From the sequence record SRR20825019_3141: a stretch of 43,525 nucleotides of DNA. The stretch is one strand, 5' to 3'. Shown piece after piece: positions 11,707 to 40,889 of the stretch. Under the pieces are notes generated by a model. It was given only the letters and a program-made list of their open reading frames with translations, searched no databases and was not told the DNA's origin. Position numbers and translations under genes: made by a program. Within the stretch, counting starts at the first letter, position 1, and each line of letters opens with the position of its first letter.

Positions 11707-12462
11707 TTAATCCAACTCCCTTACCCAAATATTCCTAAAGCTCACCCTACTGTTGTCCCCATGATCCTGAAGCCTAAGCGGCCCCTTTCCATGTGGTGGG
11801 TTTTTGGGCCAACCAATGTAAGGGGTGGTTCCTTTGATCTCCACATGATCTTGCACCAAAACACCATTATGTATCACGGTAAGGGTGCCGGACTTTACTT
11901 TTTGACCTTTTTCAAACTCGGGTGCGTGGTAAATAATATCGTAGGTATTCCATTCCCCAGTGGGCACAGAGGCCATCGCCAAGGGTGTATGCTGTTTGTA
12001 AATGGAGGCGACTTGGCCGTTTACATAGGTATCGTTATCATTGTTATCCAACACTTGAACTTCGTAGAGTCCGTTCAGAAAGATTCCGCTATTTCCTCTA
12101 TTTTGGCCATCTCGTTGCACTTCGGCAGGTGATTTCCATTCAATGTGCAACTGAATGCTCCCAAAATTCTGCTTGGTCTGAATGTCTCCCGTTCTATCCT
12201 TCACGGTCATGCTACCGTCCTTGTTCAAAGTCCATTTGGCGGCAGTACTGTCCATGGTGCTTATCCATTTCTCCAACGAGGTACCATCGAACAACACAAT
12301 GGCATCGCTTGGAGGCGCCCCGTTCTCACTAGGGGTCACTTTTGGCGGAACAGGTTTATATAATTCGGTCGCTTCGGGTTTTGTGGGTTCCACTTCCTGA
12401 GCATTGATAAAGAAACCTGCCATCATGGCAACTACGCCCAAGGTATATCTCAATCTTTTCAT
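11707..12462 (-). CDS. DUF1080 / 3-keto-disaccharide hydrolase family, secreted
   Basis: LFDG, GNSGIF, YEVQVLD, LQDHG..VSFRNIW; signal peptide. Confidence 0.9.
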   Translation of the reverse strand: MKRLRYTLGVVAMMAGFFINAQEVEPTKPEATELYKPVPPKVTPSENGAPPSDAIVLFDGTSLEKWISTMDSTAAKWTLNKDGSMTVKDRTGDIQTKQNFGSIQLHIEWKSPAEVQRDGQNRGNSGIFLNGLYEVQVLDNNDNDTYVNGQVASIYKQHTPLAMASVPTGEWNTYDIIYHAPEFEKGQKVKSGTLTVIHNGVLVQDHVEIKGTTPYIGWPKNPPHGKGPLRLQDHGDNSRVSFRNIWVRELD

Positions 12463-12463
12463 G

Positions 12464-13210: not shown

Positions 13211-14259
13211 AATCCTAATATGTTTTTAAGTTTTTGTTCATCGATATCCGCTCCGGCGAAATCATCAAATGTTTTTGTGGTTGCTTCTATAATATGATCC
13301 TGGATAAATTTCGCACCTTCGCGGGCTCCCTGCTCCGGACTTTTAATACAGCACTCCCATTCCATCACGGCCCAAACATCACATCCGTATTGGGTCAATT
13401 TGGAGAAAATGGTCTTGAAATCTATTTGTCCATCCCCCAAAGAACGGTATCTGCCTGCTCTATCCCCCCAATCGTTGTAACCGCCAAAGGCTCCTTTTTT
13501 CCCAGTTGGATTAAATTCGGAATCCTTCACGTGAAAAGATTTTATAAACTCATGATAGTGGTCAATGTAGGTAATATAATCCAACTGCTGAAGTACGAAG
13601 TGACTCGGGTCGTACAAAATATTCACTCTTTTGTGGTTGCCGGTAGCTTCCAAAAAGCGTTCAAAAGTATCACCATCATGCAGGTCTTCTCCTGGGTGGA
13701 TTTCATAACATACATCCACGCCTTCTTCATCAAAATGATTAAGGATGGGCATCCACCTATTGGCCAGCTCTTCAAAACCCATCTCTACCAATCCAGCCGG
13801 TCTTTGCGGCCATGGGTGAGCGGTGTGCCAAAGCAAGGAACCTGAAAATGTGGCATGGGCCTTAAGTCCAAGTCTTCGGCTTGCCGTAGCAGCTTTTTTA
13901 ACGGTTTCTATCGCCCATTTTGTGCGCTCTTTTGGCTTTCCGTGCAATGCTTCGGGAGCGAAGTTATCGAACATGATATCATAGGCAGGATGCACCGCTA
14001 CCAATTGCCCTTGCAAGTGCGTGGAGAGCTCGGTAATCTCCAAACCATAAGAATTTACTTTTCCTTTGAGCTCATCACAGTAATCTTGGCTTTCGGCCGC
14101 TTTGTCCAAATCTATCAGGAAGGATTCCCAAGTTGGTATCTGAATCCCTTTGTATCCAAGATCTGAAGCCCATTTGCACATACCATCCAAAGTATTGAAC
14201 GGAGGTTGGTTGTCCACAAATTGCGCCAGGAATACGGCCGGTCCTTTAATTGTCTTCAT
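13207..14259 (-). CDS. Sugar phosphate isomerase/epimerase (xylose isomerase-like TIM barrel)
   Basis: YEIHP, YDPSH, FHVKD, MEWE metal-binding motifs. Confidence 0.88.
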   Translation of the reverse strand: MKTIKGPAVFLAQFVDNQPPFNTLDGMCKWASDLGYKGIQIPTWESFLIDLDKAAESQDYCDELKGKVNSYGLEITELSTHLQGQLVAVHPAYDIMFDNFAPEALHGKPKERTKWAIETVKKAATASRRLGLKAHATFSGSLLWHTAHPWPQRPAGLVEMGFEELANRWMPILNHFDEEGVDVCYEIHPGEDLHDGDTFERFLEATGNHKRVNILYDPSHFVLQQLDYITYIDHYHEFIKSFHVKDSEFNPTGKKGAFGGYNDWGDRAGRYRSLGDGQIDFKTIFSKLTQYGCDVWAVMEWECCIKSPEQGAREGAKFIQDHIIEATTKTFDDFAGADIDEQKLKNILGL

Positions 14260-14401
14260 TTAGTTAAAATTTAAGGAATTAGGAAATCCCGAATAAATTG
14301 GGATTTATCTTTTATATTTAAGAAAAAAACTATGCTATTTTTAGGTCTCATGTAGAAAAACATAAATATAGGAATTAGCTAACAATTAAAATAACATTAA
14401 A

Positions 14402-16105: not shown

Positions 16106-16116
16106 AAACCCTACTT

Positions 16117-16581
16117 ATGGAAAATACTTCAGCCCGAAATCTGTGGGGCGATTTTTTGGATGCCCATTTGGAGTTTGCTTCTGAGGATGCGCCCAAGACC
16201 ATCCACTTTTGCGATAATGAAAAGGATGCGGACCTGTGTGCTGATTTAATCTGTAAAGAGACCAAAAGGGCCACCACACACTCGCTAAAAGGAATACAGC
16301 TCCGCAATGAAGCTTTGCCCAAAATCGGGGATTTTTATGTGGTTACGGACTGGAGTGGCGATGCCAAATGTATTATACGAACCACTGCTGTTAAGCTTCT
16401 TCCCTACTTCAGCATCAGGGAAGAGCATGCCCGTTTGGAGGGTGAAGGAGATAAAAGTCTGGATCATTGGAAAAAGGTCCATTGGGAGTATTATACCCGG
16501 GAACTATCTGACTTAGGGGCCAGGCCTACCGAGAGTATGATTGTGGTCTTTGAGCAGTTTGAGATGCTGTACAAAAAATAA
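16117..16581 (+). CDS. ASCH domain protein
   Basis: KRATT, PKIGD, EGEGDKSL..W...HW typical of ASCH/PUA-like proteins. Confidence 0.8.
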   Translation: MENTSARNLWGDFLDAHLEFASEDAPKTIHFCDNEKDADLCADLICKETKRATTHSLKGIQLRNEALPKIGDFYVVTDWSGDAKCIIRTTAVKLLPYFSIREEHARLEGEGDKSLDHWKKVHWEYYTRELSDLGARPTESMIVVFEQFEMLYKK

Positions 16582-16605
16582 TGGCTGCCAATCGGCAGCC
16601 ATTAT
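16578..16605. terminator. Hairpin terminator between convergent genes
   Basis: ATAATGGCTGCC-aatc-GGCAGCCATTAT, 12-bp stem. Confidence 0.75.
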
Positions 16606-16631
16606 CTATGCTTTTTTGAACGGGGTCAGGT

Positions 16632-17768
16632 TTAATCCATGTCCACCCAAATGTTCCCTTGCTTGTGGGATGCTACCGTGTTCTCTATAAAGTTCAGACC
16701 GCGTACACCATCCATCATGGTAGGGAATTCACCATCATTGTATTCTTCCCCGCGAATGGCTCTTGCCACGCCTAAATAGATATTGGCCATGGAATCAAAA
16801 ATACCTTCTGGGTGCCCAGGGGGCAACTTTGTTCCGTCCAAAGACAGTTTGGAATTATACTCATGTCCTGGCTTGTATACCTGCAACGGTTCGGGGTCGT
16901 TCAATTTGTATAGATAATTGGGGTTTTCCTGTTCCCATTTCAACCCTCCTTTTTCACCGTAAATGGCTATGGTCAGATTGTTTTCCTCTCCAGTGGCCAC
17001 TTGACTTGCCCTAATGACTCCTTTTACGTTCTTGTCCATACGTATAAGGGCGGTACCATCCATGTCCATCACATTGTCATCGTACATGTAGTTGAAGTCG
17101 CAAAGCAAGGATTGCACCTGCAGACCGGTGGTGTATTCTATCATGTTAAAGGCGTGTACACCGATATCTCCCATACAGGAACTGATTCCCGCTTTTTTGG
17201 GGTCGAGCCTCCATACGGTTCCTCTCTTTTCCTTATCGTGGATAATGGGGTTCATCCAACCTTGATAATATTGTGCATCAACTTTGTGTACTTTCCCAAT
17301 AACACCGTCCTTTATCATCTCGCGCATTTGGCGCACCATGGGATAACCTGTGTAAGTGTGCGTTACAGCAAATACCTTTTTGACCTCTTTAAGGGTCTCT
17401 TGAAGAATTTTAGCCTCTTCATATGTGGTGGTCATCGGTTTTTCACAAATGACGTGGAAACCGTTGTCCAACAGCTTTTTTGCCATGGGAAAGTGCAAAA
17501 AGTTGGGCGTAAGAATAGAACAAACTTGAATACGTTCGTCTTCTGGAAGCTTCATTTCTTCTTCTATCAACGTATCAAAATCTTTATAGATACGATTGGT
17601 TGGAATATCAATTTCCTTGGCAAAGGCTATACTTTCATTATGGTCTGGGTTAAACACAGCACCAACAATCTCGTAATTATCATTAATGAAGGCTGCCACC
17701 CTGTGCAGCACACCAATAAGCGAATCCCCTCCTCCTCCGAGAATTCCAAGTCTAATCTTTTTAGGCAT
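16632..17768 (-). CDS. Gfo/Idh/MocA family oxidoreductase
   Basis: Rossmann GILGGG, ICEKP, GDIGVH. Confidence 0.9.
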   Translation of the reverse strand: MPKKIRLGILGGGGDSLIGVLHRVAAFINDNYEIVGAVFNPDHNESIAFAKEIDIPTNRIYKDFDTLIEEEMKLPEDERIQVCSILTPNFLHFPMAKKLLDNGFHVICEKPMTTTYEEAKILQETLKEVKKVFAVTHTYTGYPMVRQMREMIKDGVIGKVHKVDAQYYQGWMNPIIHDKEKRGTVWRLDPKKAGISSCMGDIGVHAFNMIEYTTGLQVQSLLCDFNYMYDDNVMDMDGTALIRMDKNVKGVIRASQVATGEENNLTIAIYGEKGGLKWEQENPNYLYKLNDPEPLQVYKPGHEYNSKLSLDGTKLPPGHPEGIFDSMANIYLGVARAIRGEEYNDGEFPTMMDGVRGLNFIENTVASHKQGNIWVDMD

Positions 17769-17788
17769 TTTTATTGTTTTTTTTCTAA

Positions 17789-19024
17789 TTATACTACTTC
17801 TTCTGTATGGCCCTGCGGCACTCTTCTTTCTTCCAATTTCTTACGGAACACGAACAAAATGGAAAACAGAATCAACACTGCCAACGGAAAAAACATCATT
17901 TTCCCTAAGGTTGCCTTTCCTGCTGCCAATTCCGCCACCTCATCGGCAAGTCCAGATGAAACTGCCGTTTCTTTTGCAGTGTCCAACCACCCACCGATTA
18001 CCGGTTGCCAAATGGCCGTGGAGAACATTCCCGCACCCCCTACCAAGGACATTCCCAATGCCCCTGTTTTTGGAAGATATTCCGAGGTAAACCCTATCAT
18101 GGTAGGCCAAAAATAACAAACTCCCAACGCAAAAAGAACGGCTGCCAAATAAATCATGGAGCCTTCGGCAACACTCATACTATAAACTGCGGCTGTTGTG
18201 ATCAAGGCGGACATCACCAAAACCCCGATGGGATTGAGCCTATGTACAATGGGCCCGGCAAAATATCGGCCTATCGCCATAATACCTGTCACCATGGCCA
18301 AGACCAGCATTGGACTAGCCCCAGAATTACCCAAAATTCGTTCCACCCATTGTTGAGGGCCAAATTCTGAAATTGCAGTGAGGGTCATACACAACATGAT
18401 AAAAATAAACAAGGGGTCTGCAAGACCTTTGATGTTCTTGGTGGTATCCGTTTCGATATGTTCGCTTTCTGGAAACTGTTGCTTAAAGAACATATATCCG
18501 TAAATAAGCGTAGGTATCAACATTACCGCAATCTGTAATTGCCAACCCATTCCAAAGTCGGTCATAAACTTGGAGATAAGTGAGCCGATTACAATTCCTC
18601 CAGGGAACCATACGTGGAACCTGTTCAGCATCGCCGTCCTGTTCTTGGTGAACATATCGGCGATCATTGGATTACAGGCCGCTTCCACCGAACCATTGGC
18701 GAAGCCAATAAAGAAGGTGGATATAATCAGTGTCCAAAAACCTCCTGCCATCATAGTTAGGATCAACCCAAGCATATGGCAGACAAAAGCCGTTACCATA
18801 AGTTTACGTGCTCCGATTTTATTGTAGAGCAATCCGCCAAAGATCATGGCAATGGGGAATCCAAAAAAGCCCATACTGTTTATCCAACCCAATTGTTGAT
18901 TGGAAAGCATGAACTCCTCCCCTAATTGGGTCAATATACCAGCCCTAATGGCAAAGGTCATGGATGTGACCACCAGCGATATACAGGCTGCTAGAAATAG
19001 CTGATTCTTGTTTACGTTTTTCAT
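17789..19024 (-). CDS. MFS sugar transporter
   Basis: About 12 hydrophobic TM segments; sugar cluster context. Confidence 0.85.
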   Translation of the reverse strand: MKNVNKNQLFLAACISLVVTSMTFAIRAGILTQLGEEFMLSNQQLGWINSMGFFGFPIAMIFGGLLYNKIGARKLMVTAFVCHMLGLILTMMAGGFWTLIISTFFIGFANGSVEAACNPMIADMFTKNRTAMLNRFHVWFPGGIVIGSLISKFMTDFGMGWQLQIAVMLIPTLIYGYMFFKQQFPESEHIETDTTKNIKGLADPLFIFIMLCMTLTAISEFGPQQWVERILGNSGASPMLVLAMVTGIMAIGRYFAGPIVHRLNPIGVLVMSALITTAAVYSMSVAEGSMIYLAAVLFALGVCYFWPTMIGFTSEYLPKTGALGMSLVGGAGMFSTAIWQPVIGGWLDTAKETAVSSGLADEVAELAAGKATLGKMMFFPLAVLILFSILFVFRKKLEERRVPQGHTEEVV

Positions 19025-19126
19025 GTTTGTTTCGGTTAATTGTGGTTTAATCTATAAATCTTATGTCACTTCTTGTTTTTATCATATTGAATCAAAGGAT
19101 GTCCGAGCATGTGCATTCTCGGTTGC

Positions 19127-20356
19127 CTAAGATTTATATTCGACTTTCTCGTTCTTGAATATTAGTGCAAATAGGATAAATACGACTGCCGCGAACGCTG
19201 CTGGATAAATCCAGATACTCTCCCAAGCATGGGCACCGTCTTTCATGGTAAGTGAATCTGTAATTTGTCCTGCAATCCAGAAACCTATGAGCATTCCCAC
19301 TCCATAAGTAGCCAATGTGATCAACCCTTGAGCGGCACTCTTGTACTTTTCTCCAGCTTTGGTATCCGTGTAAATCTGCCCGGATACAAAGAAGAAATCA
19401 TAACAAATTCCGTGCAGTGCAATTCCAAGAATCAACATAAACGACAATTCATCCGCATTACCATAGGCAAAAAGCAGGTAACGAACAGTCCAGGCCAACA
19501 TACCTACCAATATGGTCTTCTTAAATCCAAATCTGGTAAAAAAGAAAGGTAGTGCGAGGATAAAAAGTGCTTCGGAAATTTGGCCTATGGCCATTTTACC
19601 GGTTGGATTTGGCAACCCTATTTCTGCCAAGAACGGATTGGCGTTTTGATAATAGAAAGCCAATGGGATACAAATCAATACCGATGAGATAAAGAACACC
19701 AAGAAATTTTTGTTCTTCAAGAGTTTCAATGCTTCAAGTCCCAACACATCAGAAATGGTCACTTTTTCGCTTTTGTCCACTTTTGGTGGGGTCTTTGGCA
19801 AAGTAAAGCTGAAAAGTCCCAAAACTGCCGAGGCAATTCCGGCCATTAAAAATGTATTTTTAAGCATTCCCGCTTCCAAGGCTTCTGGAGAGTCCCAAAC
19901 AAAAAGGTAGCTTATTACCAATCCCGCAACAATCCACCCAATGGTTCCAAACACACGGATGTTCGAAAACTCCTTTGCCGGGTCTTTCATTTGATTAAAG
20001 GAAATGGAATTCACCAAAGCCAATGTTGGCATATACAAAATCATGTATCCCAACACATAGGGGTAGAAAGCAACAAAATCCTCCGACTGATACATCTGGT
20101 ACATTAAAAAAGCACCAATAAGGTGCAGTACTCCTAAAATTCGTTCGGCATTAAAATATCTGTCGGCAATCAGTCCTATAATGAACGGGGCTATGATAGC
20201 GCCCCAAGATTGTGTGGAAAAAGCCATTGATGACTGCCCTGCAGTTGCTTCTAGATTATTCCCTAGGAATGTTCCCAAGGTAACAAACCAACCTCCCCAG
20301 ATAAAAAACTCGAGGAACATCATAAAGGATAGTTGGAATTTGGTCTTAATATTCAT
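19127..20356 (-). CDS. Nucleoside:H+ symporter family MFS permease
   Basis: FLEFFIWGGW, GLIADRY, RVFGTIGW, HGICYDFF (NupG/XapB-like). Confidence 0.85.
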   Translation of the reverse strand: MNIKTKFQLSFMMFLEFFIWGGWFVTLGTFLGNNLEATAGQSSMAFSTQSWGAIIAPFIIGLIADRYFNAERILGVLHLIGAFLMYQMYQSEDFVAFYPYVLGYMILYMPTLALVNSISFNQMKDPAKEFSNIRVFGTIGWIVAGLVISYLFVWDSPEALEAGMLKNTFLMAGIASAVLGLFSFTLPKTPPKVDKSEKVTISDVLGLEALKLLKNKNFLVFFISSVLICIPLAFYYQNANPFLAEIGLPNPTGKMAIGQISEALFILALPFFFTRFGFKKTILVGMLAWTVRYLLFAYGNADELSFMLILGIALHGICYDFFFVSGQIYTDTKAGEKYKSAAQGLITLATYGVGMLIGFWIAGQITDSLTMKDGAHAWESIWIYPAAFAAVVFILFALIFKNEKVEYKS

Positions 20357-20379
20357 TGTTGGTATTCAAAAATTAGTAA

Positions 20380-20823
20380 TTATCGTTTGTAATGCACATA
20401 GTCCAAAGGCTCGGGCACTATCCCCGCATTTCTCAACTCCATCATAATTTGCCCTCGATGGTGCGTGGAATGATTGATGATATGAAACAGGATGTCCTCC
20501 AGTTTATTTGAAAAATTCTTTCCTGTGCTGTTGGTATATTCCACTCGTTTATCAAAAGTATCCGTACTGGATACAATTTCAAAGGAAGTTCGTTGATTTT
20601 CGTAATGAATGTCTTCCCATATATCTACCTTATGCAGGTCCCAGACTCCAAATTCAGTTGGGGATTCCAGTATCCTTTGGTTCCAAATATGATGGGCATT
20701 GAGTATATGACTAAAAAGTCTAATGCAGTTGTCCGGAACCTGGCCCGGACCACTGCATTGTTCAATTATTTTTTTGTTACAATAAAAATTGTAATCGAAG
20801 AGCTGTTGTAAAAATCCCTTCAT
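20380..20823 (-). CDS. DinB/YfiT family protein
   Basis: SHILNA and NHSTHHRGQ His triad. Confidence 0.85.
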   Translation of the reverse strand: MKGFLQQLFDYNFYCNKKIIEQCSGPGQVPDNCIRLFSHILNAHHIWNQRILESPTEFGVWDLHKVDIWEDIHYENQRTSFEIVSSTDTFDKRVEYTNSTGKNFSNKLEDILFHIINHSTHHRGQIMMELRNAGIVPEPLDYVHYKR

Positions 20824-20849
20824 CTACCCATTTATATTTAGTAGGATAA

Positions 20850-21848
20850 TTATTCCAGTACTTTTTCCAAAAGTTTCTTGGTTGCCAATATTCCTTCTTC
20901 TTCGCTAAGTTCAGAGCCTTCGTACTCCACTCCCACATAACCTTCGTATCCAGCCTCGATAACAATATCCATGAGTCTTTCAAAATCAATGACGGTTTCA
21001 TTACCATTCTCATCAAAATTGTAGGACTTCGCGCTCACCCCTTTGGCGTAGGGCATCAATTCTTTTACACCTTTATATTTGTCATACTCTTCCAAACATT
21101 TGGACGAATAATAGTCTCCTTCTTCCCTTTTGATACAGAAATTTCCAAAATCCGGCAGTGTCCCACAATTCTCCATACCTACTTTTTCCATTACCTCGGC
21201 CAGCATTTCCGCATTGGAAGATGGTCCTCCGTGATTTTCCACTATTATATTGATGTTCTTGTCCTTGGCGTACGTGGCCAATTGCTTTAGTCCGGCCACC
21301 GAAGCTGGCATCCATACTTCGGGTTCCATGCTTCCGTTAAGGTTAACGCGAATGGAATGGCAGCCCAGAGCAGCAGCTGCATCTACCCATTTATAGTGGT
21401 TTTCCACGGCTTTTGTTCTTTCAGCTTCATCAGGAACCGCGATGTCGCCCTGTCCGTCCACCATGATTAAAAGGTTTTTTAGACCATATTTTTCACTCTC
21501 GGCCTTACTTTTTTCCACCCAGTGGCTCATGGCTTCTTCAGAAAAATTGGCTGCTTGCAGTTCTTTATAGTATAGGGCACTCACGTATTCCAAGCCTTCA
21601 AACCCCCATTTGCTTGCTTTTTCCGCAAACGTGTAGGGATCAACGCCTTCTTCAAAGATCATTTTGTGTATGGACCATTGTGCCAAAGAAAGCTTAATGT
21701 CCGGTTTAGGCTCATCTTCTGCTACCACCTCGGTGGCAGATTCCTCAGCTGTTTCCTTCTTTGAATTCTCTTTACAGGAATAAAATCCTAAAAAAGCCAC
21801 GGCAATAAGTGTGACAATACTTTTCTGTGCTAAACTACTTCTGTTCAT
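20850..21848 (-). CDS. Sugar phosphate isomerase/epimerase family lipoprotein
   Basis: Lipobox FYSC; SLAQWS, VENHGG, LPDFGNF, SAKS, GVEYEG. Confidence 0.88.
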   Translation of the reverse strand: MNRSSLAQKSIVTLIAVAFLGFYSCKENSKKETAEESATEVVAEDEPKPDIKLSLAQWSIHKMIFEEGVDPYTFAEKASKWGFEGLEYVSALYYKELQAANFSEEAMSHWVEKSKAESEKYGLKNLLIMVDGQGDIAVPDEAERTKAVENHYKWVDAAAALGCHSIRVNLNGSMEPEVWMPASVAGLKQLATYAKDKNINIIVENHGGPSSNAEMLAEVMEKVGMENCGTLPDFGNFCIKREEGDYYSSKCLEEYDKYKGVKELMPYAKGVSAKSYNFDENGNETVIDFERLMDIVIEAGYEGYVGVEYEGSELSEEEGILATKKLLEKVLE

Positions 21849-21984
21849 ATTTTTACGTTAGTTAATTTCGTGCGGAATCCAAAAACTACAACGTTATAGT
21901 GCTGAATTCTCAATAAACATAGGGATTAAATGTAGAAAATTAATTTAATAATTAATACATTTAGCAAATAAACAATCCGAATAA

Positions 21985-23703
21985 ATGAGTAAATTTTATT
22001 ACAATCAGGAGCAGGAATCCTACGATGCCATAGTGGTAGGTACGGGTATCAGCGGTGGTTGGGCTGCAAAAGAATTGTGCGAAAACGGTCTCAAGACTTT
22101 GGTCTTGGAGCGTGGCCCCATGGTAAAACACCGTGAAGATTACCCTACGGCCAATATGGACGATTGGGATTTTAAGCATGCGGGCAGAGCAACCCGAGAA
22201 GACGTTAAGCAACAAGAGAAACAATCCAGAACTGGTTATACCACCGGTGCAGCTTCAAAGCATTGGTTTGTAAACGACTTGGACCATCCTTACAACGAGA
22301 CCAAACGTTTCGATTGGATGAGAGGTTACCACGTAGGTGGACGTTCTATTATGTGGGGACGACACAGCTACAGGTGGAGCGACATTGATTTTACTGCAAA
22401 CAAAAACGAAGGAATCGCCGTTGATTGGCCAGTACGTTATAAGGATATAGCTCCTTGGTACGATAAAGTTGAAAGTTATATCGGGGTATCCGGTGAAAAT
22501 TTAGGTCTGCCTCAACTTCCCGATGGACAGTTTGAGCCCATGATGGAACTCAATTGTGTAGAGGACCACGTAAGAGGCAAGGTCGCCGAACATTTTGGTG
22601 GCCGTGTCATCACCGCAGGTAGGGTGGCCCACATAAACAGTGACAAACAGTTTGATGGTGACGGTCGGGTTCGTTGTCAATTTAGGAACCGTTGTATTAG
22701 AGGATGTCCTTTCGGAGCATATTTCAGCAGCGTTTCCTCTACATTGCCAGCTGCCGAAGCTACAGGAAACATGACGCTTAGACCGGATTCCATTGTACAC
22801 GAGGTAATCTATGACCCCAACACCAAGAAGGCTACAGGCGTTAAGGTCATCGATAGAGAAACCAAAGAAGAGTTTGAGTTCAAGGCAAAAGTTATTTTCC
22901 TATGTGCTTCTGCCATTGCTTCTACTTCCATTTTGATGCAATCCAAATCGGATAGGTTCCCTAATGGTTTAGGAAACGACTCCGGAGAATTGGGCCATAA
23001 TGTTATGGACCACCATTTCTTGGTAGGCGCATCCGGTAAGTTTGATGGGTATGAAGACAAATACTACAAGGGTAGAAAACCAAACGGAATCTACATCCCA
23101 AGATTTAGAAACCTTGGCGGTGATTCCGATATGAAAAACTTTAAACGTGGTTATGGCTACCAAGGGGGCGCAGGTAGAGGCAATTATGAAGAATTGATCG
23201 CGGAAGCTTCGTTCGGTAAAGATTACAAGGATGCCGTTCTTACCCCGGGAGGGTGGACAATGAACATGCTCGCGTTCGGTGAAACCTTGCCTTACCATGA
23301 TAACAAAATGACCTTGGATTACGACAAGAAAGACAAATGGGGGCTTCCTACCGTTACTTTTGATGCGGAAATTCGTGAGAATGAGCTGAACATGAGAAAA
23401 GACATGCAAGATCAAGCCGTTCAAATGCTCGAAAAAGCAGGCGCGAAAGACATTACCCCTTACGATGCGCCCTATGCATTGGGTCTAGGTATTCATGAAA
23501 TGGGTACCGCAAGAATGGGACGTGATCCAAAGACTTCCGTTGTAAATGGCAACAACCAAGTACACGGATGTGAAAACGTATATGTTACCGATGGCGCCTT
23601 TATGGCATCTGCAAGTTGTGTAAACCCATCGTTGACATATATGGCATTTACAGCAAGGGCTGCCAACCATGCTGCCCAAGAACTTAAAAAAGGAAATATA
23701 TAA
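21985..23703 (+). CDS. GMC family FAD oxidoreductase, copy 2
   Basis: Same motifs as 14402-16105 (GTGISGG, CQFRNRCIRGC, HEMGTARMG). Confidence 0.9.
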   Translation: MSKFYYNQEQESYDAIVVGTGISGGWAAKELCENGLKTLVLERGPMVKHREDYPTANMDDWDFKHAGRATREDVKQQEKQSRTGYTTGAASKHWFVNDLDHPYNETKRFDWMRGYHVGGRSIMWGRHSYRWSDIDFTANKNEGIAVDWPVRYKDIAPWYDKVESYIGVSGENLGLPQLPDGQFEPMMELNCVEDHVRGKVAEHFGGRVITAGRVAHINSDKQFDGDGRVRCQFRNRCIRGCPFGAYFSSVSSTLPAAEATGNMTLRPDSIVHEVIYDPNTKKATGVKVIDRETKEEFEFKAKVIFLCASAIASTSILMQSKSDRFPNGLGNDSGELGHNVMDHHFLVGASGKFDGYEDKYYKGRKPNGIYIPRFRNLGGDSDMKNFKRGYGYQGGAGRGNYEELIAEASFGKDYKDAVLTPGGWTMNMLAFGETLPYHDNKMTLDYDKKDKWGLPTVTFDAEIRENELNMRKDMQDQAVQMLEKAGAKDITPYDAPYALGLGIHEMGTARMGRDPKTSVVNGNNQVHGCENVYVTDGAFMASASCVNPSLTYMAFTARAANHAAQELKKGNI

Positions 23704-24356
23704 TGGAAAGAAGATCAGCACTTAAAAATATGGGATTGGCCTTCGGTTATGCCGTGGCCACGCCGACATTGTTATCGCTATTGCAGAGCTGTAAAGACAA
23801 ACCTGCATATGCGGAGTGGACACCTAGTTTCCTAAGCAAAGAACAAGGATATGCCATGGCTCAAACGTTGGATGTCATACTTCCAAAAACGGATACACCA
23901 TCTGCAACCGAGGTGAACGTGCATACGTTTATAGATGCCTATTTGGATGAAGTTATGCCATTGGACCAAAGGGAGTTTGTCGTCATGAAAATGAACAAGT
24001 TCTATGACAAGGTCTTGGCCGATTCCGGGAAAGAATCTTTAATGGATATTGAAGCTGCCGATATAGAGCCTGCATTGCAAGCCTATCTTAGAAAGCGTTC
24101 GGACGAAGAGGAAAAGGTACATTCTGAGGCCATAATGAACTATATGCAGGCCATAATGCAAGGAGGTGAGGCTAGTCTGGACGAAGATATTGCCCGATTC
24201 TCTTTTGCAAACGATCTGAGGGATTTGGCCACTTGGGCCTATAAATCATCAGAATATGTAGGTGAAGAGGTATTAGCTTATTTGCCAATTCCAGGTGAAT
24301 ATATCGGATGTGGCGACCTTGAAACCTTAACAGGTGGAAAAGCTTGGTCAATCTAA
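23703..24356 (+). CDS. Gluconate 2-dehydrogenase subunit 3 family, Tat lipoprotein
   Basis: ERRSALK twin-Arg, LQSC lipobox, ILPKTDTPSA, YLPIPG; start overlaps GMC stop. Confidence 0.85.
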   Translation: MERRSALKNMGLAFGYAVATPTLLSLLQSCKDKPAYAEWTPSFLSKEQGYAMAQTLDVILPKTDTPSATEVNVHTFIDAYLDEVMPLDQREFVVMKMNKFYDKVLADSGKESLMDIEAADIEPALQAYLRKRSDEEEKVHSEAIMNYMQAIMQGGEASLDEDIARFSFANDLRDLATWAYKSSEYVGEEVLAYLPIPGEYIGCGDLETLTGGKAWSI

Positions 24357-24380
24357 GGCTTAGATAACATCCATAAAATT

Positions 24381-24411
24381 AAAAAACCTCCAAATTATTG
24401 GAGGTTTTTTT
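24381..24411 (+). terminator. Intrinsic terminator of the GMC operon (bidirectional form)
   Basis: AAAAAACCTCCAA-atta-TTGGAGGTTTTTT. Confidence 0.9.
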
Positions 24412-24423
24412 ATGTCGGTTTCT

Positions 24424-24645
24424 AAAAAAATACCCCGGATGTTCTGTTGTGGGGTGAACATTTCCGAGGTATTAAATCAATAAACACTATCACCTGTGCC
24501 ATTCTAGGCACAAAATAACTGTATACACAATACAGGAATATCTGTTGTATCGGCACAGTAATTTGTTGAAGATTTCCTAAAACGGTTTTAGTATCCTACG
24601 CTTTTCAGCGTGTGGAATCTACCTAATCTAGTTCTTGGGTCAACG
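24424..24645 (-). ncRNA. Candidate structured ncRNA (~220 nt)
   Basis: Several hairpins, a GAAA tetraloop on the minus strand (24598-24611), terminal hairpin plus U7 tail at 24424-24473; no convincing ORF. Confidence 0.5.
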
Positions 24646-24775
24646 CCGACAAAGATTTAAAAATACCTTGAGTTTTTAAAGATTCAACGCTAAAAACACC
24701 CGTAAAGTTTTTAACATAAAATGTTGAAATCTAGGCACTGGCTTAATTTGTAAGCAATACTTTACAAAATCTGTA

Positions 24776-24826
24776 AAAACAAAAAGACCAAGTAACATAT
24801 CAGTATGTTTACTTGGTCTTGCTTTT
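24776..24826 (-). terminator. Intrinsic terminator of the small-peptide transcript
   Basis: AAGACCAAGTAA/TTACTTGGTCTT 12-bp stem with A-tract on the left (U-tail on minus strand). Confidence 0.8.
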
Positions 24827-25057
24827 ATGATGAACCGGCTAAATAGTCAAATATTACCAAAGAGTACGGCCTCTTCAATCGAGCCTTACTAAATCTTTTT
24901 TTGTCCTAGGTAGTTCCCCCGAAACCTAAAATCAAATCCAGATTATGGCCAAACAGAAGTTAATTGTGCAAGCGGTTTATACAATCAAAAGATTGGTTGC
25001 CGTGGCCGTACAATTATTTGGTAATACAAAATTTTTAAGAGCTATCGTGTTACAAGA
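24827..25057 (-). ncRNA. Structured 3' region of the small-peptide transcript
   Basis: Long-range helix 24852-24871 with 25004-25026; internal hairpins at 24907-24928 and 24982-24995. Confidence 0.5.
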
Positions 25058-25177
25058 TTATTTCCTTGCAACAACCTTATTCCAATCGCTGCCCAATTGG
25101 GCGTTGTTCTTTTCTGATACTGCGGCGAAAAACAGGGCCGCTATCAAAATCAAAAACAATATTGCACATTTTTTCAT
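25058..25177 (-). CDS. Unannotated 39-aa secreted peptide precursor MKKCAILFLILIAALFFAAVSEKNNAQLGSDWNKVVARK
   Basis: Manual translation; MKK n-region, hydrophobic h-region, NNA|Q cleavage candidate; A-rich initiation context; -7 box upstream. Confidence 0.7.
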   Translation of the reverse strand: MKKCAILFLILIAALFFAAVSEKNNAQLGSDWNKVVARK

Positions 25178-25218
25178 TTTCTGGCTATTTCAAAATTGTC
25201 CTCTCATTTTTGACATGC

Positions 25219-25290
25219 CGAATATAGACAACTAAATTTCACACATATAATGCGTATGTATAAACTGTTCTGTTTTATGTATAATTGGTT
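25219..25290 (-). promoter_or_regulatory. Promoter of the small ORF with LytTR-type direct repeats
   Basis: TATATTCG -7 box (25219-25226); TATGTATAA repeated at 25255 and 25276 (21-bp period). Confidence 0.65.
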
Positions 25291-25381
25291 TTTGGGTATG
25301 GGAAACTAGCTTTAGCTTTTCTGTAAACTATAGTCCCAAACAGAAAAAACCAGTGATTTTTCACCTGATTCCCCTTTTTAT

Positions 25382-25451
25382 ACCAGTTATACGTGCTAAA
25401 TATCCATTAACACATTATTTTATTGCCATGTAGAGAATAATTCTAAATTTG
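25382..25451 (+). promoter_or_regulatory. Promoter of the LytTR/kinase operon with related repeats
   Basis: ACCAGTTATAC (25382) and degenerate TCCATTAACAC (25403), 21 bp apart; TAAATTTG -7 box at 25444-25451. Confidence 0.55.
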
Positions 25452-25470
25452 GTATAACCTATATTAGATT

Positions 25471-26205
25471 ATGCTAGAAGCAGTAATAGTTGATGACGAG
25501 ATAAAAGCCCTCCAAAGCCTAAGCTGGGAACTTACCAACTTGAGCGATGAAGTGGATATTATTGCATCTTTTACAGATGCCAGGGAAGCTTTGGACTATT
25601 TGGAAAAGAACACTCCCGATTGTCTATTTTTGGATATTGAAATGCCCGCAATGGACGGGTTCCAGTTTATAAAAAACTTGAAAAACAAGGATTTTCCGGT
25701 AGTCATTACTACAGCCTATAACCAATATGCCCTGCAGGCCCTAAAAAATGAGGCCATCGACTATCTCCTAAAACCCATAGACTCGGATGATCTGGAGGAA
25801 ACCATAGCCAAAATAAAAAAGTTCAACGCTAAAAATTTGACCGTTGAACGCTTGGAAAGAATTCTTCTTAACTTTAATTCGGAATCGCAAAGCAAAAAAA
25901 TAACCATCAATACGGACGGTAAATTGGTCTTTTTGAACAGCGATGAAATCCTGTATGCAGAATCGGATGGTAATTACAGTACTATTTTTTTAAAGGATGG
26001 ACAAAAAATCCTTCTCACGAAAAAATTGAAGGAAGTCAATGCTTTGTTGCCAGAAAGCAGCTTTTTTAGAATACACAACTCATATATAATCAATCTCAAC
26101 AAAATAAAAGAATTCCTCAAAACCGACGGCTATGTGGTTCTGGAATCCAATCATAAAATCCCTGTTTCCCGGCAAAAAAAATCCGACTTTTTGGATATGC
26201 TATAA
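25471..26205 (+). CDS. LytTR family response regulator
   Basis: REC domain (VDDE, FLDIEMP, YLLKP) plus LytTR domain (FFRIHNSYIIN, IPVSR). Confidence 0.95.
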   Translation: MLEAVIVDDEIKALQSLSWELTNLSDEVDIIASFTDAREALDYLEKNTPDCLFLDIEMPAMDGFQFIKNLKNKDFPVVITTAYNQYALQALKNEAIDYLLKPIDSDDLEETIAKIKKFNAKNLTVERLERILLNFNSESQSKKITINTDGKLVFLNSDEILYAESDGNYSTIFLKDGQKILLTKKLKEVNALLPESSFFRIHNSYIINLNKIKEFLKTDGYVVLESNHKIPVSRQKKSDFLDML

Positions 26206-26220
26206 TCTCAAAATGTTCCC

Positions 26221-28188
26221 GTGCCTATAGTAAAGTTCCTCCTTATCAAAAACCTGCATCGAGCGCGAACCGGGTCTCTGGTCACCTTTTTGCTGTTCTC
26301 CTTTTTATATACTTTACACGCTCAAAATCTCTCCGACGAGTTTATTGACAAAACGGAAATACTGGTAAAACTTAAACCCAAGACCTACGAGGCACTGGAT
26401 GAAGAGCTATCTTCCGAAAAACGGGACACCTCCTTATTAAGATACTTTGCCGACTTTAGCAAAAAAAACGACTATCTAGAAGGACAATCTTATGCCTTGA
26501 ACCAATTGGGCATGAAGTATCGGAACTTTTCCCAATATGAACAGGCCGTAGCATTGCACGAACAAGCCTTGGCCGCCTCTGAAAAAGCGAACAACATTGA
26601 TTTTAAAGTACTCAGTTTAAATATGCTAGGTGTGGTCTATAGACGTACCGATGGGATAAAGACCGCATTGGATTATCACCAAAAGGCGCTTGAACTGGCA
26701 GAACAAATAGAGAACCCATCCAACCATATTAAAAGAAGTATAAATGTTGCCCTGAATGGTATTGGAAACCTTTACCAAACTTTGGAGCAGTACGATTTGG
26801 CCATATTACAATTTAGAAGGGCATTGAAACTGGAAGAGGAACTGGGCAACAAACTGGGGTTGGCCATAAACCATCAAAATATTGGGCATTGCCTAGAGGA
26901 AAAGGGCGATTTGGAAGAGGCTCTGGAAAATTACAGGAAATCCTTGGCCTATAACGAGGAAATCGATTCGGAAGTAGGCCGTGTTATATGCAAGAACAGT
27001 CTGGCCCAAATCTATTTAAAACAGAACATGCCCTATTTGGCGTTGGTACTTTTAGAGCCCCTACATTCAGAATCCGAAAAAATAGGCGATTTCTCCGTAA
27101 CAGGCCTGGTGTATATCAATACGGGATGGGCACATACCAAATTGGGCAACTATGAGGAAGCAGAAACCTTTATCCAAAAAGGACTTACAATGGCGCAAAA
27201 CCGAAATATGCCCAGCAATATTTTGTATGCGTACGAAAAGATGTCCGATCTAGAAAACGCCAAAGGTGATTTTAAAAAAGCCTATGAGTTTTACAAAAAG
27301 GCCAGTGAACACGAAAAGGAGATTTCCAGTGCAACCAACCTACGGTACATGAACGATATTATCGTTAGGTACGAAAACGACAAGAAGAACAGCCAAATCG
27401 CAGTTTTGGCGAAAGAAAATGAAATCGTTCGGCTAAGGCTTAAAAAAAATCAGACAACTCTTCTGGTAAGTGCATTGATCGTTGGGCTTATTTCATCCAT
27501 ACTCTACATTCTTTACCGACAATACCAGAGTAAGAACGAGAAGAGGGTACTCACTTTGGAGCAACAAATGCTGCGCAGCCAAATGAACCCCCATTTCTTG
27601 TTCAACTCCTTGAACTCGATTAAGCTGTATATTATAAACAACGAGCAAAAAAATGCCGTTCATTATCTGAACAAGTTCTCCAAACTTGTCCGAAAAATTC
27701 TAGAAGCATCTTCCCAAAAGGAAATCCCGCTATCCGAAGAACTGGGAACCATGGAGCTATACATGAATATCGAAAATATCCGGTTCTCCAACGAAATAGA
27801 TTTTAAAATAGAAGTAGAAAAGAACATCAATATAGATAATATCAAAATTCCATCTTTGACACTTCAGCCTTTTTTGGAAAACTCCCTTTGGCATGGCCTA
27901 TCTCCCAAAGAAGGAGAAAAGAAAATTCAAATTAACGTGAAACACAAGGACCGAGGACACGTTACAATTGAAATTGTGGACAATGGTGTTGGGCGAACCA
28001 TGGCCGAGGTAAACAAAGAAAACCGTGTGCTAAAAAGGAAATCCTTGGGTATTCGCATTACCAAGGAACGATTGGCCAATTTTGCCAAAGACTATCAAAA
28101 CAAATTTGATGTGGATATCTTGGACCTGTTCGATGAGAACGGTGATCCCATTGGAACCAAAGTTGTGCTGGACATCCCCACTATCTAG
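26221..28188 (+). CDS. TPR-repeat sensor histidine kinase, LytS/His_kinase type
   Basis: N-terminal hydrophobic segment, multiple TPRs, one TM, SQMNPHFLFNSLN H-box, LQPFLEN, DNGVG. Confidence 0.92.
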   Translation: MPIVKFLLIKNLHRARTGSLVTFLLFSFLYTLHAQNLSDEFIDKTEILVKLKPKTYEALDEELSSEKRDTSLLRYFADFSKKNDYLEGQSYALNQLGMKYRNFSQYEQAVALHEQALAASEKANNIDFKVLSLNMLGVVYRRTDGIKTALDYHQKALELAEQIENPSNHIKRSINVALNGIGNLYQTLEQYDLAILQFRRALKLEEELGNKLGLAINHQNIGHCLEEKGDLEEALENYRKSLAYNEEIDSEVGRVICKNSLAQIYLKQNMPYLALVLLEPLHSESEKIGDFSVTGLVYINTGWAHTKLGNYEEAETFIQKGLTMAQNRNMPSNILYAYEKMSDLENAKGDFKKAYEFYKKASEHEKEISSATNLRYMNDIIVRYENDKKNSQIAVLAKENEIVRLRLKKNQTTLLVSALIVGLISSILYILYRQYQSKNEKRVLTLEQQMLRSQMNPHFLFNSLNSIKLYIINNEQKNAVHYLNKFSKLVRKILEASSQKEIPLSEELGTMELYMNIENIRFSNEIDFKIEVEKNINIDNIKIPSLTLQPFLENSLWHGLSPKEGEKKIQINVKHKDRGHVTIEIVDNGVGRTMAEVNKENRVLKRKSLGIRITKERLANFAKDYQNKFDVDILDLFDENGDPIGTKVVLDIPTI

Positions 28189-28750
28189 TCTTTTCTGCAG
28201 CTACTTCCTCCAATTCCCTGTACCAGGCCTTTCCGAACTTTTTGATCAAAGCATCTTTTACAAACTTGTAGATAGGGACTTTCAATTCCTTACCCAAGGA
28301 GCAAGCCGGGTCACAGATTTCCCATTTATGGTAATTGACTGCGGTAAACTCCGAATATTCCCTTGTACGAACCGGATACAGATAGCACGAAATAGGTTTT
28401 TTCCATTTGGTGGCACCGGCCTCATAAGCAGCTTCCAGTCCACATTTGGCTATGCCATCATCAGAAAAAACCACATAAGCGCATTCATTATTGTTCACCA
28501 AAGGGGTTTCCCATTCACCATCCTCTCCTTTTACAAAAACCCCATGTTCTTCAATGGCAGCAATACCTTCCGGGCGCAAAAAGGGCTTTACCTCATCATA
28601 AATATTGAGTAACTTGTCCGTCTCGGAATCCTCCAACGGTGCACCATACTCGCCACCCACACAACAAGCTCCTTTGCAAGCATTCAGATTGCAAACAAAA
28701 TCATTTTCCAGTATCTCTTCGGATACTATGGTTTTTCCTATCTGGAACAT
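28181..28750 (-). CDS. DUF3109 family Cys-rich protein
   Basis: FVCNLNACKGACC, KPISCYLYP, WEICDPAC. Confidence 0.85.
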   Translation of the reverse strand: MFQIGKTIVSEEILENDFVCNLNACKGACCVGGEYGAPLEDSETDKLLNIYDEVKPFLRPEGIAAIEEHGVFVKGEDGEWETPLVNNNECAYVVFSDDGIAKCGLEAAYEAGATKWKKPISCYLYPVRTREYSEFTAVNYHKWEICDPACSLGKELKVPIYKFVKDALIKKFGKAWYRELEEVAAEKTR

Positions 28751-28871
28751 AATATGTCCTTACTTTTTGGGCAAAGGTAAATCAAAACCAAAAAATTGAT
28801 GATTTATAAACACTTTATATGATCCAAAAGTGTTTTTTACCCGTAAATTTGCCGTCCAAAAAAAAGACGCC

Positions 28872-29456
28872 ATGAATTTTAATTTTAAGGAAATAGCGAC
28901 CGCTGGAATGGTATTGTTTGCCGTAATCGATATTTTAGGAAGTATCCCTATTATTTTATCGCTCAGAAGCAAGGTGGGTCATGTACAATCGGAAAAGGCT
29001 TCCATCGTGGCCATTTCGATCATGATTGCTTTTCTTTTCGTTGGAGAAAGCATTCTTTCTTTGATAGGAATCGATGTAAACTCCTTTGCTGTCGCTGGGG
29101 CCTTTATCATCTTTTTCCTTGCCATTGAAATGATTTTGGGAATCTCGCTCTATAAAGACGATGAACCGGAAACTGCTTCCATTGTGCCCATTGCCTTCCC
29201 GTTGATCGCGGGTGCGGGGACGCTTACTTCTATTTTGTCCTTGCGAGCGGAATACCATGTGGAGAACATTATAGTGGCCATTATTATAAACGTTATCTTT
29301 GTGTACATCGTGCTTAAATCCAGTGCCCGGATTGAACGTATTTTAGGCAAAAACGGACTTAACATTATCCGCAAAGTATTTGGAGTGATTCTTATGGCTA
29401 TTGCCGTAAAGCTTTTTGTGACCAATGTAAACGGGCTACTATCGCACGGTGCTTAA
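28872..29456 (+). CDS. MarC family membrane protein
   Basis: LFAVID.LG, VPIAFPLIAGAG; TAAATTTG -7 box at 28844 supports ATG 28872. Confidence 0.88.
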   Translation: MNFNFKEIATAGMVLFAVIDILGSIPIILSLRSKVGHVQSEKASIVAISIMIAFLFVGESILSLIGIDVNSFAVAGAFIIFFLAIEMILGISLYKDDEPETASIVPIAFPLIAGAGTLTSILSLRAEYHVENIIVAIIINVIFVYIVLKSSARIERILGKNGLNIIRKVFGVILMAIAVKLFVTNVNGLLSHGA

Positions 29457-39335: not shown

Positions 39336-40889
39336 CTATTTAAAGCCAACTTTTACGAGTTGCTTTCTGCCTCCTCTTTTGGCATAGAACAACATTTTAT
39401 CCTCTGCCTCATCCTTTAAGGGTTTGGAAACCATAAGTGGTAACCTGGCCTCTTGCTGATCAATGATTTTTTCATAGTCCATGACCCCATTCTCATCCAA
39501 CGAGATCATAAACACATTCCTGTTACGGCTAAAGCCCTGTTTAAATATCAAACGTTCGTTGTTGATCAATTGAGGGTTTTCTGCCGCAGTACAGATAAAG
39601 AAGTAGGTATTTCCATCCTTACAATACGAGCTGTAGGAAGCGTATGCGCCATCTCCTTGGGTCACTTCTGTTTTGTTGATGTTCCTCGCCCATTCCATAT
39701 TACCATTTTGATCAAGCTTTACACTGACTATATCGTTATGGTGATAGCGTTCGATTTTGACACGCTGCCCCGCACCGGTAGTTTCCAAGCCCGAGGTTAC
39801 GAAGTACTCTTCGGCATTAAAGAATATTTCGTTGTTCTCCGTTACTTCGACATTTTTGAAAACAAGGTTTTTAATGTCCTTATCCTCTTCCCGGCCAAAT
39901 TTATCATCCATAAATTGCTGCGAAAAGGGATTGTATTTCTGAGAACGAATATCCATTGTGTTCGGATTTACATCAAAATAAACGATGCCATTGTACCTGT
40001 TGTCCTTTCTATCGGCATAAAATCCCGTACAGACCAGTTTGTTTTCTATCAAAACGGGGTATAATGCTTCAGGGTATTTTCCTGGGTCCACAAACGACTG
40101 TGTCTGGCTCTCACTTTGGGACACTTTTATCAATTCATATTGAAACTTTCTCTCATCGACCCTAAATCTTCGTTTTTTAAAGTAAGCCTTGCCTACTATG
40201 TATGCGGTTTGAAGATCATTTGAAAATGCAACGTTCTCAAAAGCATAGTTCTTTTCCTCTACTTCATCCGAAAAATCGAACTCGAACTTTTTATTGAGCG
40301 CCGTATCGTACATATGGATCATATGTTTATTGCTTTTGCCCCTTTTGTGATGCGTACTGATCACAAAACCTGTTTTTTCCTCATTAAAAAGGATAGCCGT
40401 AGTAAATCCGCGCGAGAAATCACGGTTATAATAATTCTTCCCGACCGGATCATCCACTTTTTCCGAAGCAATGGAGAGCAACTTTTTTTCTTGAAAATTG
40501 AAATCGATAATTGGGCTACTGTGCGCCCAATATTCGTATTCACCTCTGTTTGAGTTATAGTTTAGAAACAAAAGATTCAACTGGCCGTTTTTAAGGAATC
40601 CATCTACAAAATCAAGGTCCTTGAGTTTATAATTGTACTCTTCCACGAGCTCTAAATCGCTATTGTATTTTTCGATGAGATATCCTTTTGGCTTAAGAAT
40701 AAGTCCTTGATAGTAGGCGCGCACCAAAATATAGCCCCCGGATTCGTCCTCATCGATGGCCACTAAATTGGAGTAGCGGTAACGGTCCTTGTATTTTTCA
40801 CCAAAATCGTAAGAAACGGGCATTTTTTGTGCGTTTACGGCCATGCCCGACAGCACAAAGCTAAATAGAAGAAGCAGGTATTTTTTCAT
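39336..40889 (-). CDS. Secreted hypothetical protein, beta-rich
   Basis: 517-aa ORF with signal peptide (VNA|Q); family not recognised. Confidence 0.8.
   Translation of the reverse strand: MKKYLLLLFSFVLSGMAVNAQKMPVSYDFGEKYKDRYRYSNLVAIDEDESGGYILVRAYYQGLILKPKGYLIEKYNSDLELVEEYNYKLKDLDFVDGFLKNGQLNLLFLNYNSNRGEYEYWAHSSPIIDFNFQEKKLLSIASEKVDDPVGKNYYNRDFSRGFTTAILFNEEKTGFVISTHHKRGKSNKHMIHMYDTALNKKFEFDFSDEVEEKNYAFENVAFSNDLQTAYIVGKAYFKKRRFRVDERKFQYELIKVSQSESQTQSFVDPGKYPEALYPVLIENKLVCTGFYADRKDNRYNGIVYFDVNPNTMDIRSQKYNPFSQQFMDDKFGREEDKDIKNLVFKNVEVTENNEIFFNAEEYFVTSGLETTGAGQRVKIERYHHNDIVSVKLDQNGNMEWARNINKTEVTQGDGAYASYSSYCKDGNTYFFICTAAENPQLINNERLIFKQGFSRNRNVFMISLDENGVMDYEKIIDQQEARLPLMVSKPLKDEAEDKMLFYAKRGGRKQLVKVGFK

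Follow-up and report, generated by a model that had tools for sequence, protein, structure and literature searches.

A 39-codon gene divergent from a LytTR two-component system in Flagellimonas: a probable membrane microprotein with a structured RNA domain on the same strand

What is encoded by a 39-codon open reading frame (ORF) that lies divergently beside a LytTR-type two-component system is the question raised by a stretch of flavobacterial DNA of 43,525 nucleotides (sequence record SRR20825019_3141), referred to here at its full length as the window; it differs from a Flagellimonas abyssi W52 contig by 2 mismatches in 16,117 bases. A sequence-only reading took the N-terminal 26 residues of the product to be a Sec signal peptide, cut by SPase I at NNA|Q so that Gln27 cyclises and a 13-residue pyroglutamyl signal is released, and named as the alternative an uncleaved membrane microprotein that modulates the kinase. 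Judged against its orthologs, the product is most likely a small membrane protein, predicted to remain uncleaved, rather than a secreted pyroglutamyl peptide; the headline pheromone of the earlier reading is not borne out, and the uncleaved membrane protein that it named as the alternative fits the sequence evidence, with modulation of the kinase a supposition. In Proteobacteria and Firmicutes much is known of peptide signalling, of kinase control by microproteins and of dual-function RNAs, and this locus would offer a compact, testable candidate in culturable marine flavobacteria, with one kinase whose sensor is of a peptide-binding type, one LytTR regulator, a predicted binding site and a short microprotein/RNA transcript. 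The ORF and the frame that overlaps it are as follows.

25058..25177, minus strand: gene of 39 codons plus stop, encoding a microprotein predicted to cross the membrane once, intact in 45/45 loci and under sense-frame purifying selection
24945..25235, plus strand: 96-aa antisense ORF, not a gene but a shadow of the real ORF, with which it has wobble positions in common; not conserved

The position and strand of the ORF are as originally claimed, its translation (MKKCAILFLILIAALFFAAVSEKNNAQLGSDWNKVVARK) matches the quoted peptide exactly, and the 96-aa plus-strand ORF does overlap it. The stretch 22000..29000 holds 73 listed ORFs of at least 30 aa; the size of this one is not significant by itself, and it stands above chance because it is conserved. 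Conservation was followed in 45 loci drawn from a single genome scan, with M[RK]KC[AV][IV]LF[LV] as its seed, by which more distant relatives may be missed. The records are mostly named Flagellimonas, Muricauda or Allomuricauda, and the remainder include a Eudoraea genome bin and bins labelled Algicola, Flavobacteriaceae, Bacteroidia and Bacteroidota. A word-based search, run with the 41-residue stop-to-stop frame as query (the minimum query length being 40), returned four close relatives, and an exhaustive search of 1.84 billion protein representatives returned nine clusters at E up to 0.001, with members of 39–78 residues in which the extra length of the longer ones consists of N-terminal extensions only. 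Some orthologs are publicly annotated as 'hypothetical protein'. Family searches gave no match in Pfam and only a sub-threshold match to PA3371 in NCBIfam (15 bits, cutoff 50); in the ESM Atlas, queried with an ortholog rather than with the window sequence, all matches were at or below 0.77, too low to be of use.

The gene is under purifying selection. An ATG-started open frame is found in all 45 loci, with 39 codons in 39 of them and 40–48 codons in the other six, and the 39 equal-length sequences, all distinct, have pairwise diversities of 0.30, 0.18 and 0.50 at codon positions 1, 2 and 3. The comparison of dN/dS across homologs that had been suggested as a check gave a median of 0.20 (267 pairs with dS between 0.05 and 1.5), and no frame-breaking change was seen in any locus. 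Among the six frames of the 39-codon sequences, the sense frame has the lowest pN/pS (0.35) and stops in 0/39; in the antisense frame with the same wobble positions, 2/39 contain stops and pN/pS is 0.43, and the remaining four have stops in 20–39 of 39 and values of 0.76–1.23. The 96-aa antisense ORF was itself considered as a gene and rejected: its stop-to-stop length varies from 26 to 164 aa with both ends shifting, its start codon is absent in 7/45 loci, and it is broken in the 95%-identical F. aurea locus. On the evidence of sequence conservation, the 39-codon ORF is a real gene, vertically inherited in Flagellimonas and close relatives; the conclusions drawn from it rest on closely related genomes, because the family is narrow (nine representative clusters).

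The features of the encoded protein are those of a single-pass membrane protein, and the substitutions among orthologs preserve its hydrophobic and charged layout.

25115..25168, minus strand: 18-residue apolar segment (codons 4–21), predicted to form a transmembrane helix and more conserved than the rest of the protein, defined by run length, column identity and AlphaFold2

The apolar run that starts at Cys4 is 18 residues long in 43/45 loci. Residues 1–3 carry a charge of +2 in all 45, and the net charge of the tail ranges from −6 to +3. In this pattern-seeded set, C4, L7 and F8 are invariant and L11, L15 and A18 nearly so, a spacing that would place them on one helical face. Within an otherwise variable tail, Trp32 is kept in 41/45. 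AlphaFold2, given the 45-sequence alignment, predicts a single unbroken helix over residues 2–38 with a mean pLDDT of 76.6, at about 90 over the apolar part and about 62–66 over the tail. The protein thus fits the pattern of a single-pass membrane microprotein, an apolar helix of about 18 or more residues flanked by charges, with the positive end inside. C-terminal variability, another check that had been proposed, is indeed seen, with an identity of 0.43 over tail residues 22–39 vs 0.73 over residues 4–21; as the apolar segment is more conserved than the tail, it is not leader-like, since a disposable signal peptide shows the opposite pattern. In the proposed arrangement, the basic MKK/MRK end would sit in the cytoplasm, the 18-residue helix would span the membrane with one conserved face (C4, L7, F8, L11, L15, A18), and the variable tail of about 18 residues, bearing the conserved Trp32, would lie outside.

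Divergent from the ORF lies a two-component system, and their linkage is conserved.

25471..26205, plus strand: response regulator with receiver and LytTR DNA-binding domains (Pfam), divergent from the ORF and in the same position in 45/45 loci
26221..28188, plus strand: sensor histidine kinase with a cleavable signal peptide (LHA|Q), a TPR sensor, one transmembrane helix and His_kinase and HATPase domains (Pfam), in 44/45 loci

The regulator gene lies about 280–335 bp from the ORF in every one of the 45 loci, and the kinase is matched in all but L032, in which the contig ends inside the regulator. As everything around these genes is conserved within one genus, this synteny says little about a functional link. 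The His_kinase domain is PF06580, of LytS type; the nearest NCBIfam model to the kinase is FimS (NF053520) at 86.8 bits against a cutoff of 600, and the nearest models to the regulator, BtsR and LytR, are both below cutoff as well. A literature search on flavobacterial LytTR/TPR kinases found none. When the kinase sensor and transmembrane helix (residues 35–445) were co-folded with the microprotein, the score was 0.04 (mark 0.34), which speaks neither for nor against binding. The transmembrane helix of the kinase (residues 411–433, 27454–27519) has a column identity of 0.97 vs 0.88 in the catalytic part; a near-invariant helix of this kind would fit a conserved membrane partner.

Between the two divergent genes, a paired repeat and a promoter-like box precede the ORF.

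25256..25285, minus strand: candidate binding site for the LytTR regulator, a direct repeat of ATTATACAT, a 12-bp spacer and TTTATACAT (9+12+9 geometry)
25219..25226, minus strand: −7-like box TATATTCG, a conserved block with 5/6 fixed positions of TAnnTTTG

An excerpt of PMC6193735 describes LytTR sites as two 9-bp direct repeats, mostly 12 bp apart, placed 4–11 bp upstream of the −35 element. The layout here agrees, with paired 9-bp repeats 12 bp apart (12 ± 1 bp being the spacing expected at a LytTR-activated promoter), upstream of a candidate promoter and next to a LytTR regulator gene; the repeat sequence at 25256..25285 differs from published LytTR consensus sequences, and it is the geometry alone that points to binding by the regulator. 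The repeat is conserved: YATACA-N15-YATACA occurs at one site in the window (25257..25283, minus strand) vs 0.59 expected by chance, and exactly once per locus in 43/45 loci, always about 80–108 bp upstream of the ATG. Excerpted text of PMC9723704 has the flavobacterial −7 box, TAnnTTTG, spanning −12 to −5, and from the −7-like box a start near 25214 would follow, with the repeats then at about −71 to −42. This putative promoter shows no recognisable −33 element. Most likely, the phosphorylated regulator would activate the promoter of the microprotein. On the other strand, an exact TAAATTTG at 25444–25451 (−7 consensus TAnnTTTG) lies 20–27 nt upstream of the regulator ATG and is likely the constitutive promoter of the regulator-kinase operon, and at 25378–25393, also on the plus strand and in the conserved part upstream of the regulator, TTATACC and TTATACG stand 2 nt apart as half-site-like copies of the repeat core with 9 bp spacing, which may form an autoregulatory site.

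The region downstream of the ORF holds a second conserved element, as the sequence 135–400 nt from the ATG is more conserved than the ORF itself.

24849..25028, minus strand: conserved structured RNA domain of about 180 nt, with an outer helix, inner helices and an 8-bp helix (GTACGGCC/GGCCGTAC) that is invariant, defined by conservation, covariation and a covariance model
24908..24926, minus strand: invariant GGTTTCGGGGGAACTACCT, a hairpin with a G-rich loop at the tip of the RNA domain, unique in the window, made up of invariant columns and also found in the Eudoraea locus (L045)
24775..24826, minus strand: terminator hairpin and U-run in the minimum-free-energy fold, with a covarying stem, the end of a predicted transcript of about 440 nt

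The helices of this domain covary. In the outer helix, with the consensus TATTACCAAA paired with TTTGGTAATA, nine consecutive positions pair in 38–39 of 39 distinct sequences, compensatory changes are seen (for example, U-A to C-G in eight sequences), and G·U pairs occur that are valid on the ORF strand only and are mismatches on the opposite strand. The stem pairs of the terminator covary too (for example, AU in 34 sequences and GC in nine), and its T-run is conserved. Under an RNAalifold consensus on a plain MAFFT alignment of 44 sequences, 90.0% of cells pair vs 34–45% when the partners are slid, and double changes are found in 20/55 pairs vs 13.6 ± 2.0 in shuffles, a count reached by 0/500 of them; the first such run missed the outer helix because it was misaligned, and an anchored analysis recovered it. 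A model-fitted alignment of 45 sequences, which leans towards structure, gives 91.4% paired and double changes in 27/55. The predicted transcript of 444 nt folds at −125.4 kcal/mol (z-score −5.2), and in this fold the start codon is left unpaired.

With a covariance model made from 44 sequences, 24849..25028 scores 188.5 bits. Built without L045, the model finds a copy downstream of the Eudoraea ortholog, on the same strand and about 300 nt away, with a different yet complementary outer helix and the same invariant hairpin; its 33 bits lie near the reverse-strand echoes of known copies (18–33 bits), so it is the conserved motifs that carry the case. The spacing of ORF and RNA in the Eudoraea bin (L045, 4037–4338) is about 300 nt vs 15–30 nt in Flagellimonas, and the ORF there has 48 codons and an unrelated tail; with about 300 nt between them, the ORF and RNA of that bin could be separate genes. 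Rfam 15 gave no match over 24777..25042 (E up to 1) or in L026 (E up to 5), and a literature search on the invariant RNA motif found none. As judged from these alignments, the RNA domain is real, lies on the ORF strand and is previously undescribed.

That the microprotein ORF and the RNA domain share one transcript is plausible. A conserved RNA structure is contiguous with the small ORF on the same strand, and a consensus scan of the minus strand found no terminator-like site between them. An internal promoter for the RNA domain was considered and rejected: there is a single TAnnTTTG-like box, one clade lacks it, and a transcript from it would begin within the outer helix that covaries. A search of the window for targets of the G-rich loop stayed at chance level, with 4 matches vs 4.76 expected. 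With the ORF followed by a structured 3' half, the locus resembles a dual-function RNA, or else an mRNA that encodes a microprotein and whose structured 3' region is functional.

Taken jointly, the locus probably consists of an uncleaved membrane microprotein gene, a transcript driven by the two-component system and a structured RNA domain on that same transcript, a reading that is favoured here with moderate confidence. The promoter with the LytTR-type site would face away from the operon of the TPR-sensor kinase and LytTR regulator and, once activated by phosphorylated regulator, would give a transcript of about 440 nt that runs to the intrinsic terminator, with the microprotein ORF at its 5' end and, as its 3' half, the conserved structured RNA domain with the invariant G-rich hairpin loop. 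All of the evidence is comparative: it shows purifying selection on the gene, conservation of the linkage and of the repeat, and covariation in the RNA. That the uncleaved product enters the membrane, that the regulator controls the gene, that ORF and RNA are transcribed together and that the microprotein acts back on the kinase are put forward as what the sequence suggests. A full-text literature search on the locus and motif themselves, as distinct from similar systems elsewhere in the Bacteroidota, gave no description of either.

Several known systems bear a partial likeness to this arrangement. MgrB is the feedback microprotein of PhoQ/PhoP in enterobacteria, and it is likewise a single-pass protein of about 40–50 residues, oriented with the N-terminus in the cytoplasm and a short tail on the far side of the membrane; its gene is controlled by the two-component system on which it acts. 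There is, however, no sequence similarity between the two, the periplasmic cysteines of MgrB are absent from the flavobacterial microprotein, and the flavobacterial gene is adjacent to and divergent from its two-component system, with binding to the kinase only hypothetical. SgrS/SgrT and other dual-function small RNAs share the order of a 5' small ORF followed by a conserved 3' RNA domain and terminator, as well as a divergently encoded activator; the flavobacterial RNA domain differs in its size of about 180 nt and its several helices, and is without a known base-pairing target or chaperone. The neighbouring kinase shares the TPR-sensor architecture of FimS-type kinases (NF053520), but with the score so far below the cutoff given above, and with a LytTR regulator as output partner and a LytS-type PF06580 core, it differs from that family.

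Another parallel in layout is RNAIII/hld of the Staphylococcus agr locus. There, too, a LytTR regulator and a kinase share an operon, opposite which stands a divergent promoter with two 9-bp direct repeats, and the RNA made from that promoter is structured and codes for a small peptide as well. The flavobacterial locus belongs to a different phylum, is without agrB/agrD-type pheromone genes and has its ORF at the 5' end; its kinase senses through a TPR domain rather than a polytopic membrane domain, and its peptide is a predicted membrane anchor, not an amphipathic cytolysin. The geometry of LytTR sites used in this comparison is that found in the excerpt of PMC6193735. An agr-like circuit in the Bacteroidota, in which a LytTR-driven bifunctional RNA would yield a peptide tail read by the TPR domain of the kinase and a riboregulator loop acting in trans, is unlikely, although worth naming for what it would entail: a membrane-tethered or released Trp-containing tail would give feedback or autoinduction, and the invariant G-rich loop of a structured riboregulator would act on target mRNAs in trans.

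Should cleavage take place at another site, after Ala18/Ala19 or Ser21, a peptide of 18–21 residues could be sensed by the periplasmic TPR domain of the kinase and close an autoinduction loop, which is judged rather improbable. A permissive form of the −3/−1 rule is satisfied after residue 18 in 34/39 sequences and after residue 21 in 28/39, a variable tail that keeps Trp32 (41/45) would suit a ligand that determines specificity, and a LytTR-type site lies upstream of the ORF; in Gram-positive bacteria, peptide signalling systems usually act through LytTR regulators. Gln is found at +1 in 0/39 at either site, however, the position after residue 18 falls within the apolar run, and the −1 residue at position 21 is Leu in 10/39. 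Face-specific conservation of the apolar helix would be unexpected in a discarded leader. The locus also lacks the marks of a ComC/AgrD-like precursor, as the double-glycine leader motif is in none of the 45 sequences and no processing or export gene is adjacent, the neighbours (DUF3109, MarC, S41 peptidase) including no dedicated exporter.

That the ORF is untranslated, with the whole 440-nt transcript acting as RNA and the frame kept open by RNA-level constraints, is very unlikely. The 3' domain is more conserved than the ORF, and no ribosome-binding site can be pointed to, as flavobacteria are without Shine-Dalgarno signals according to excerpted text of PMC9723704. Against this stand the ATG and stop-free frame in 45/45 loci with 39 codons in 39/45, the diversity of 0.50 at third vs 0.18 at second codon positions, the pN/pS of 0.35, and substitutions that keep the hydrophobic and charged layout of a protein.

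More doubtful still is a membrane peptide resembling a type I toxin, whose translation would be controlled by its long structured mRNA, as with hok or tisB. The peptide is small and hydrophobic, a single helix followed by a charged tail, and a large untranslated part of its predicted transcript is structured, which would suit such a toxin. The flavobacterial gene is, however, single-copy and strictly syntenic in 45 genomes beside a two-component system rather than patchy or multi-copy, an antisense RNA gene is not evident, and the structured domain is unpaired with the translation start in the predicted fold.

The pheromone from which the question started, a 13-residue pyroglutamyl peptide released at NNA|Q, is extremely unlikely, since Gln27 is present in only 7/45 orthologs, the −3/−1 rule is satisfied in 0/39 and the conservation pattern is the reverse of that expected. 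Several features of the window speak for it. The string NNA|Q is literally present, and A|Q also stands in four close relatives; the xA|Q leaders that had been named in other window proteins are there too (INA|Q in the ORF at 11707..12462 and VNA|Q in that at 39336..40889, both minus strand, and LHA|Q in the kinase). The neighbouring kinase carries a TPR sensor, and the TPR fold is known for peptide binding. An excerpt of PMC5837995 documents a Q-rule in Bacteroidetes, by which more than half of SPase I clients expose Gln, and the organism, with the kinase and two other window proteins as examples, follows it.

The orthologs read otherwise. Residue 27 is Gln in seven of the 45, Glu in 17, Lys in 15 and another residue in six, and residue 26, at −1, is Ala in 17 and Leu in 13, with T, V, S, K, E, I or N in the rest; in 21/45 the −1 residue is K, E, V, I, L or N. 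With the rule applied as a small −1 residue and a small or aliphatic −3 residue, the proposed site satisfies it in none of the 39 sequences, as −3 is N, K, D, S, E, R or Q. In the window sequence itself, −3 is Asn, and Glu22 and Lys23 stand between the apolar run and the cut, in the would-be c-region, where the genuine leaders of the window stay apolar to about three residues before the cut. The apolar run, at 18 residues, exceeds the 7–15 of a signal-peptide h-region. Column identity is 0.73 over the supposed leader (residues 4–21) vs 0.45 over the proposed 13-mer; in the signal peptide of the kinase, taken as a control from the same 32 genomes, it is 0.34 vs 0.79 in the mature TPR sensor, with 0.76 at Ala34 and Gln35 (+1) in 32/32. 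On none of the three criteria tested does the microprotein appear to behave as a Q-rule SPase I substrate, and it differs in this from the substrates of which PMC5837995 speaks in the excerpted part. A local match to the Q-rule is thus insufficient to call a secreted peptide, as orthologs and a true signal peptide in the same genomes reverse the call. The leader of the kinase (26221–26325, plus strand; L002–L044), variable with an invariant Gln, is in its own right a clean example of the Q-rule in Flavobacteriia.

On the other side of the microprotein ORF in the window, a GMC oxidoreductase gene and a gluconate 2-dehydrogenase subunit-3-like gene converge on it. This flank differs between clades, with the dehydrogenase genes at about +760 to +840 in 22 loci and beyond +4300 in 19. 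In the gap before the distant dehydrogenase genes (L026, L031) lie ORFs of 328 and 822–825 residues on the strand of the microprotein ORF, which were read as ribonucleotide reductase subunits. The reductase-like pair stands between the RNA terminator and the dehydrogenase genes in other Flagellimonas species; on the minus strand of the window, 24649..24735 is homologous to the 5' flank of the smaller reductase-like ORF and 24380..24496 to the 3' flank of the larger one, and the lineage of the window appears to have lost or moved the pair cleanly. That the RNA domain is a leader of the reductase genes, which follow it in one clade, was rejected as the sole explanation, as both the domain and its compensatory changes are retained in the 22 loci where the dehydrogenase genes abut it instead.

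At 24381–24410, a terminator with a 13-bp stem (AAAAAACCTCCAATAATTTGGAGGTTTTTT) has A/T runs on both sides; placed behind the dehydrogenase subunit gene, it probably ends transcription in both directions. Beyond it, 11707–24356 is a sugar-oxidation cluster with duplicated parts, which contains two GMC oxidoreductases, two 3-keto-disaccharide hydrolase-like proteins and two xylose isomerase-like TIM barrels, along with GFO/IDH/MocA oxidoreductases and MFS and nucleoside-type transporters.
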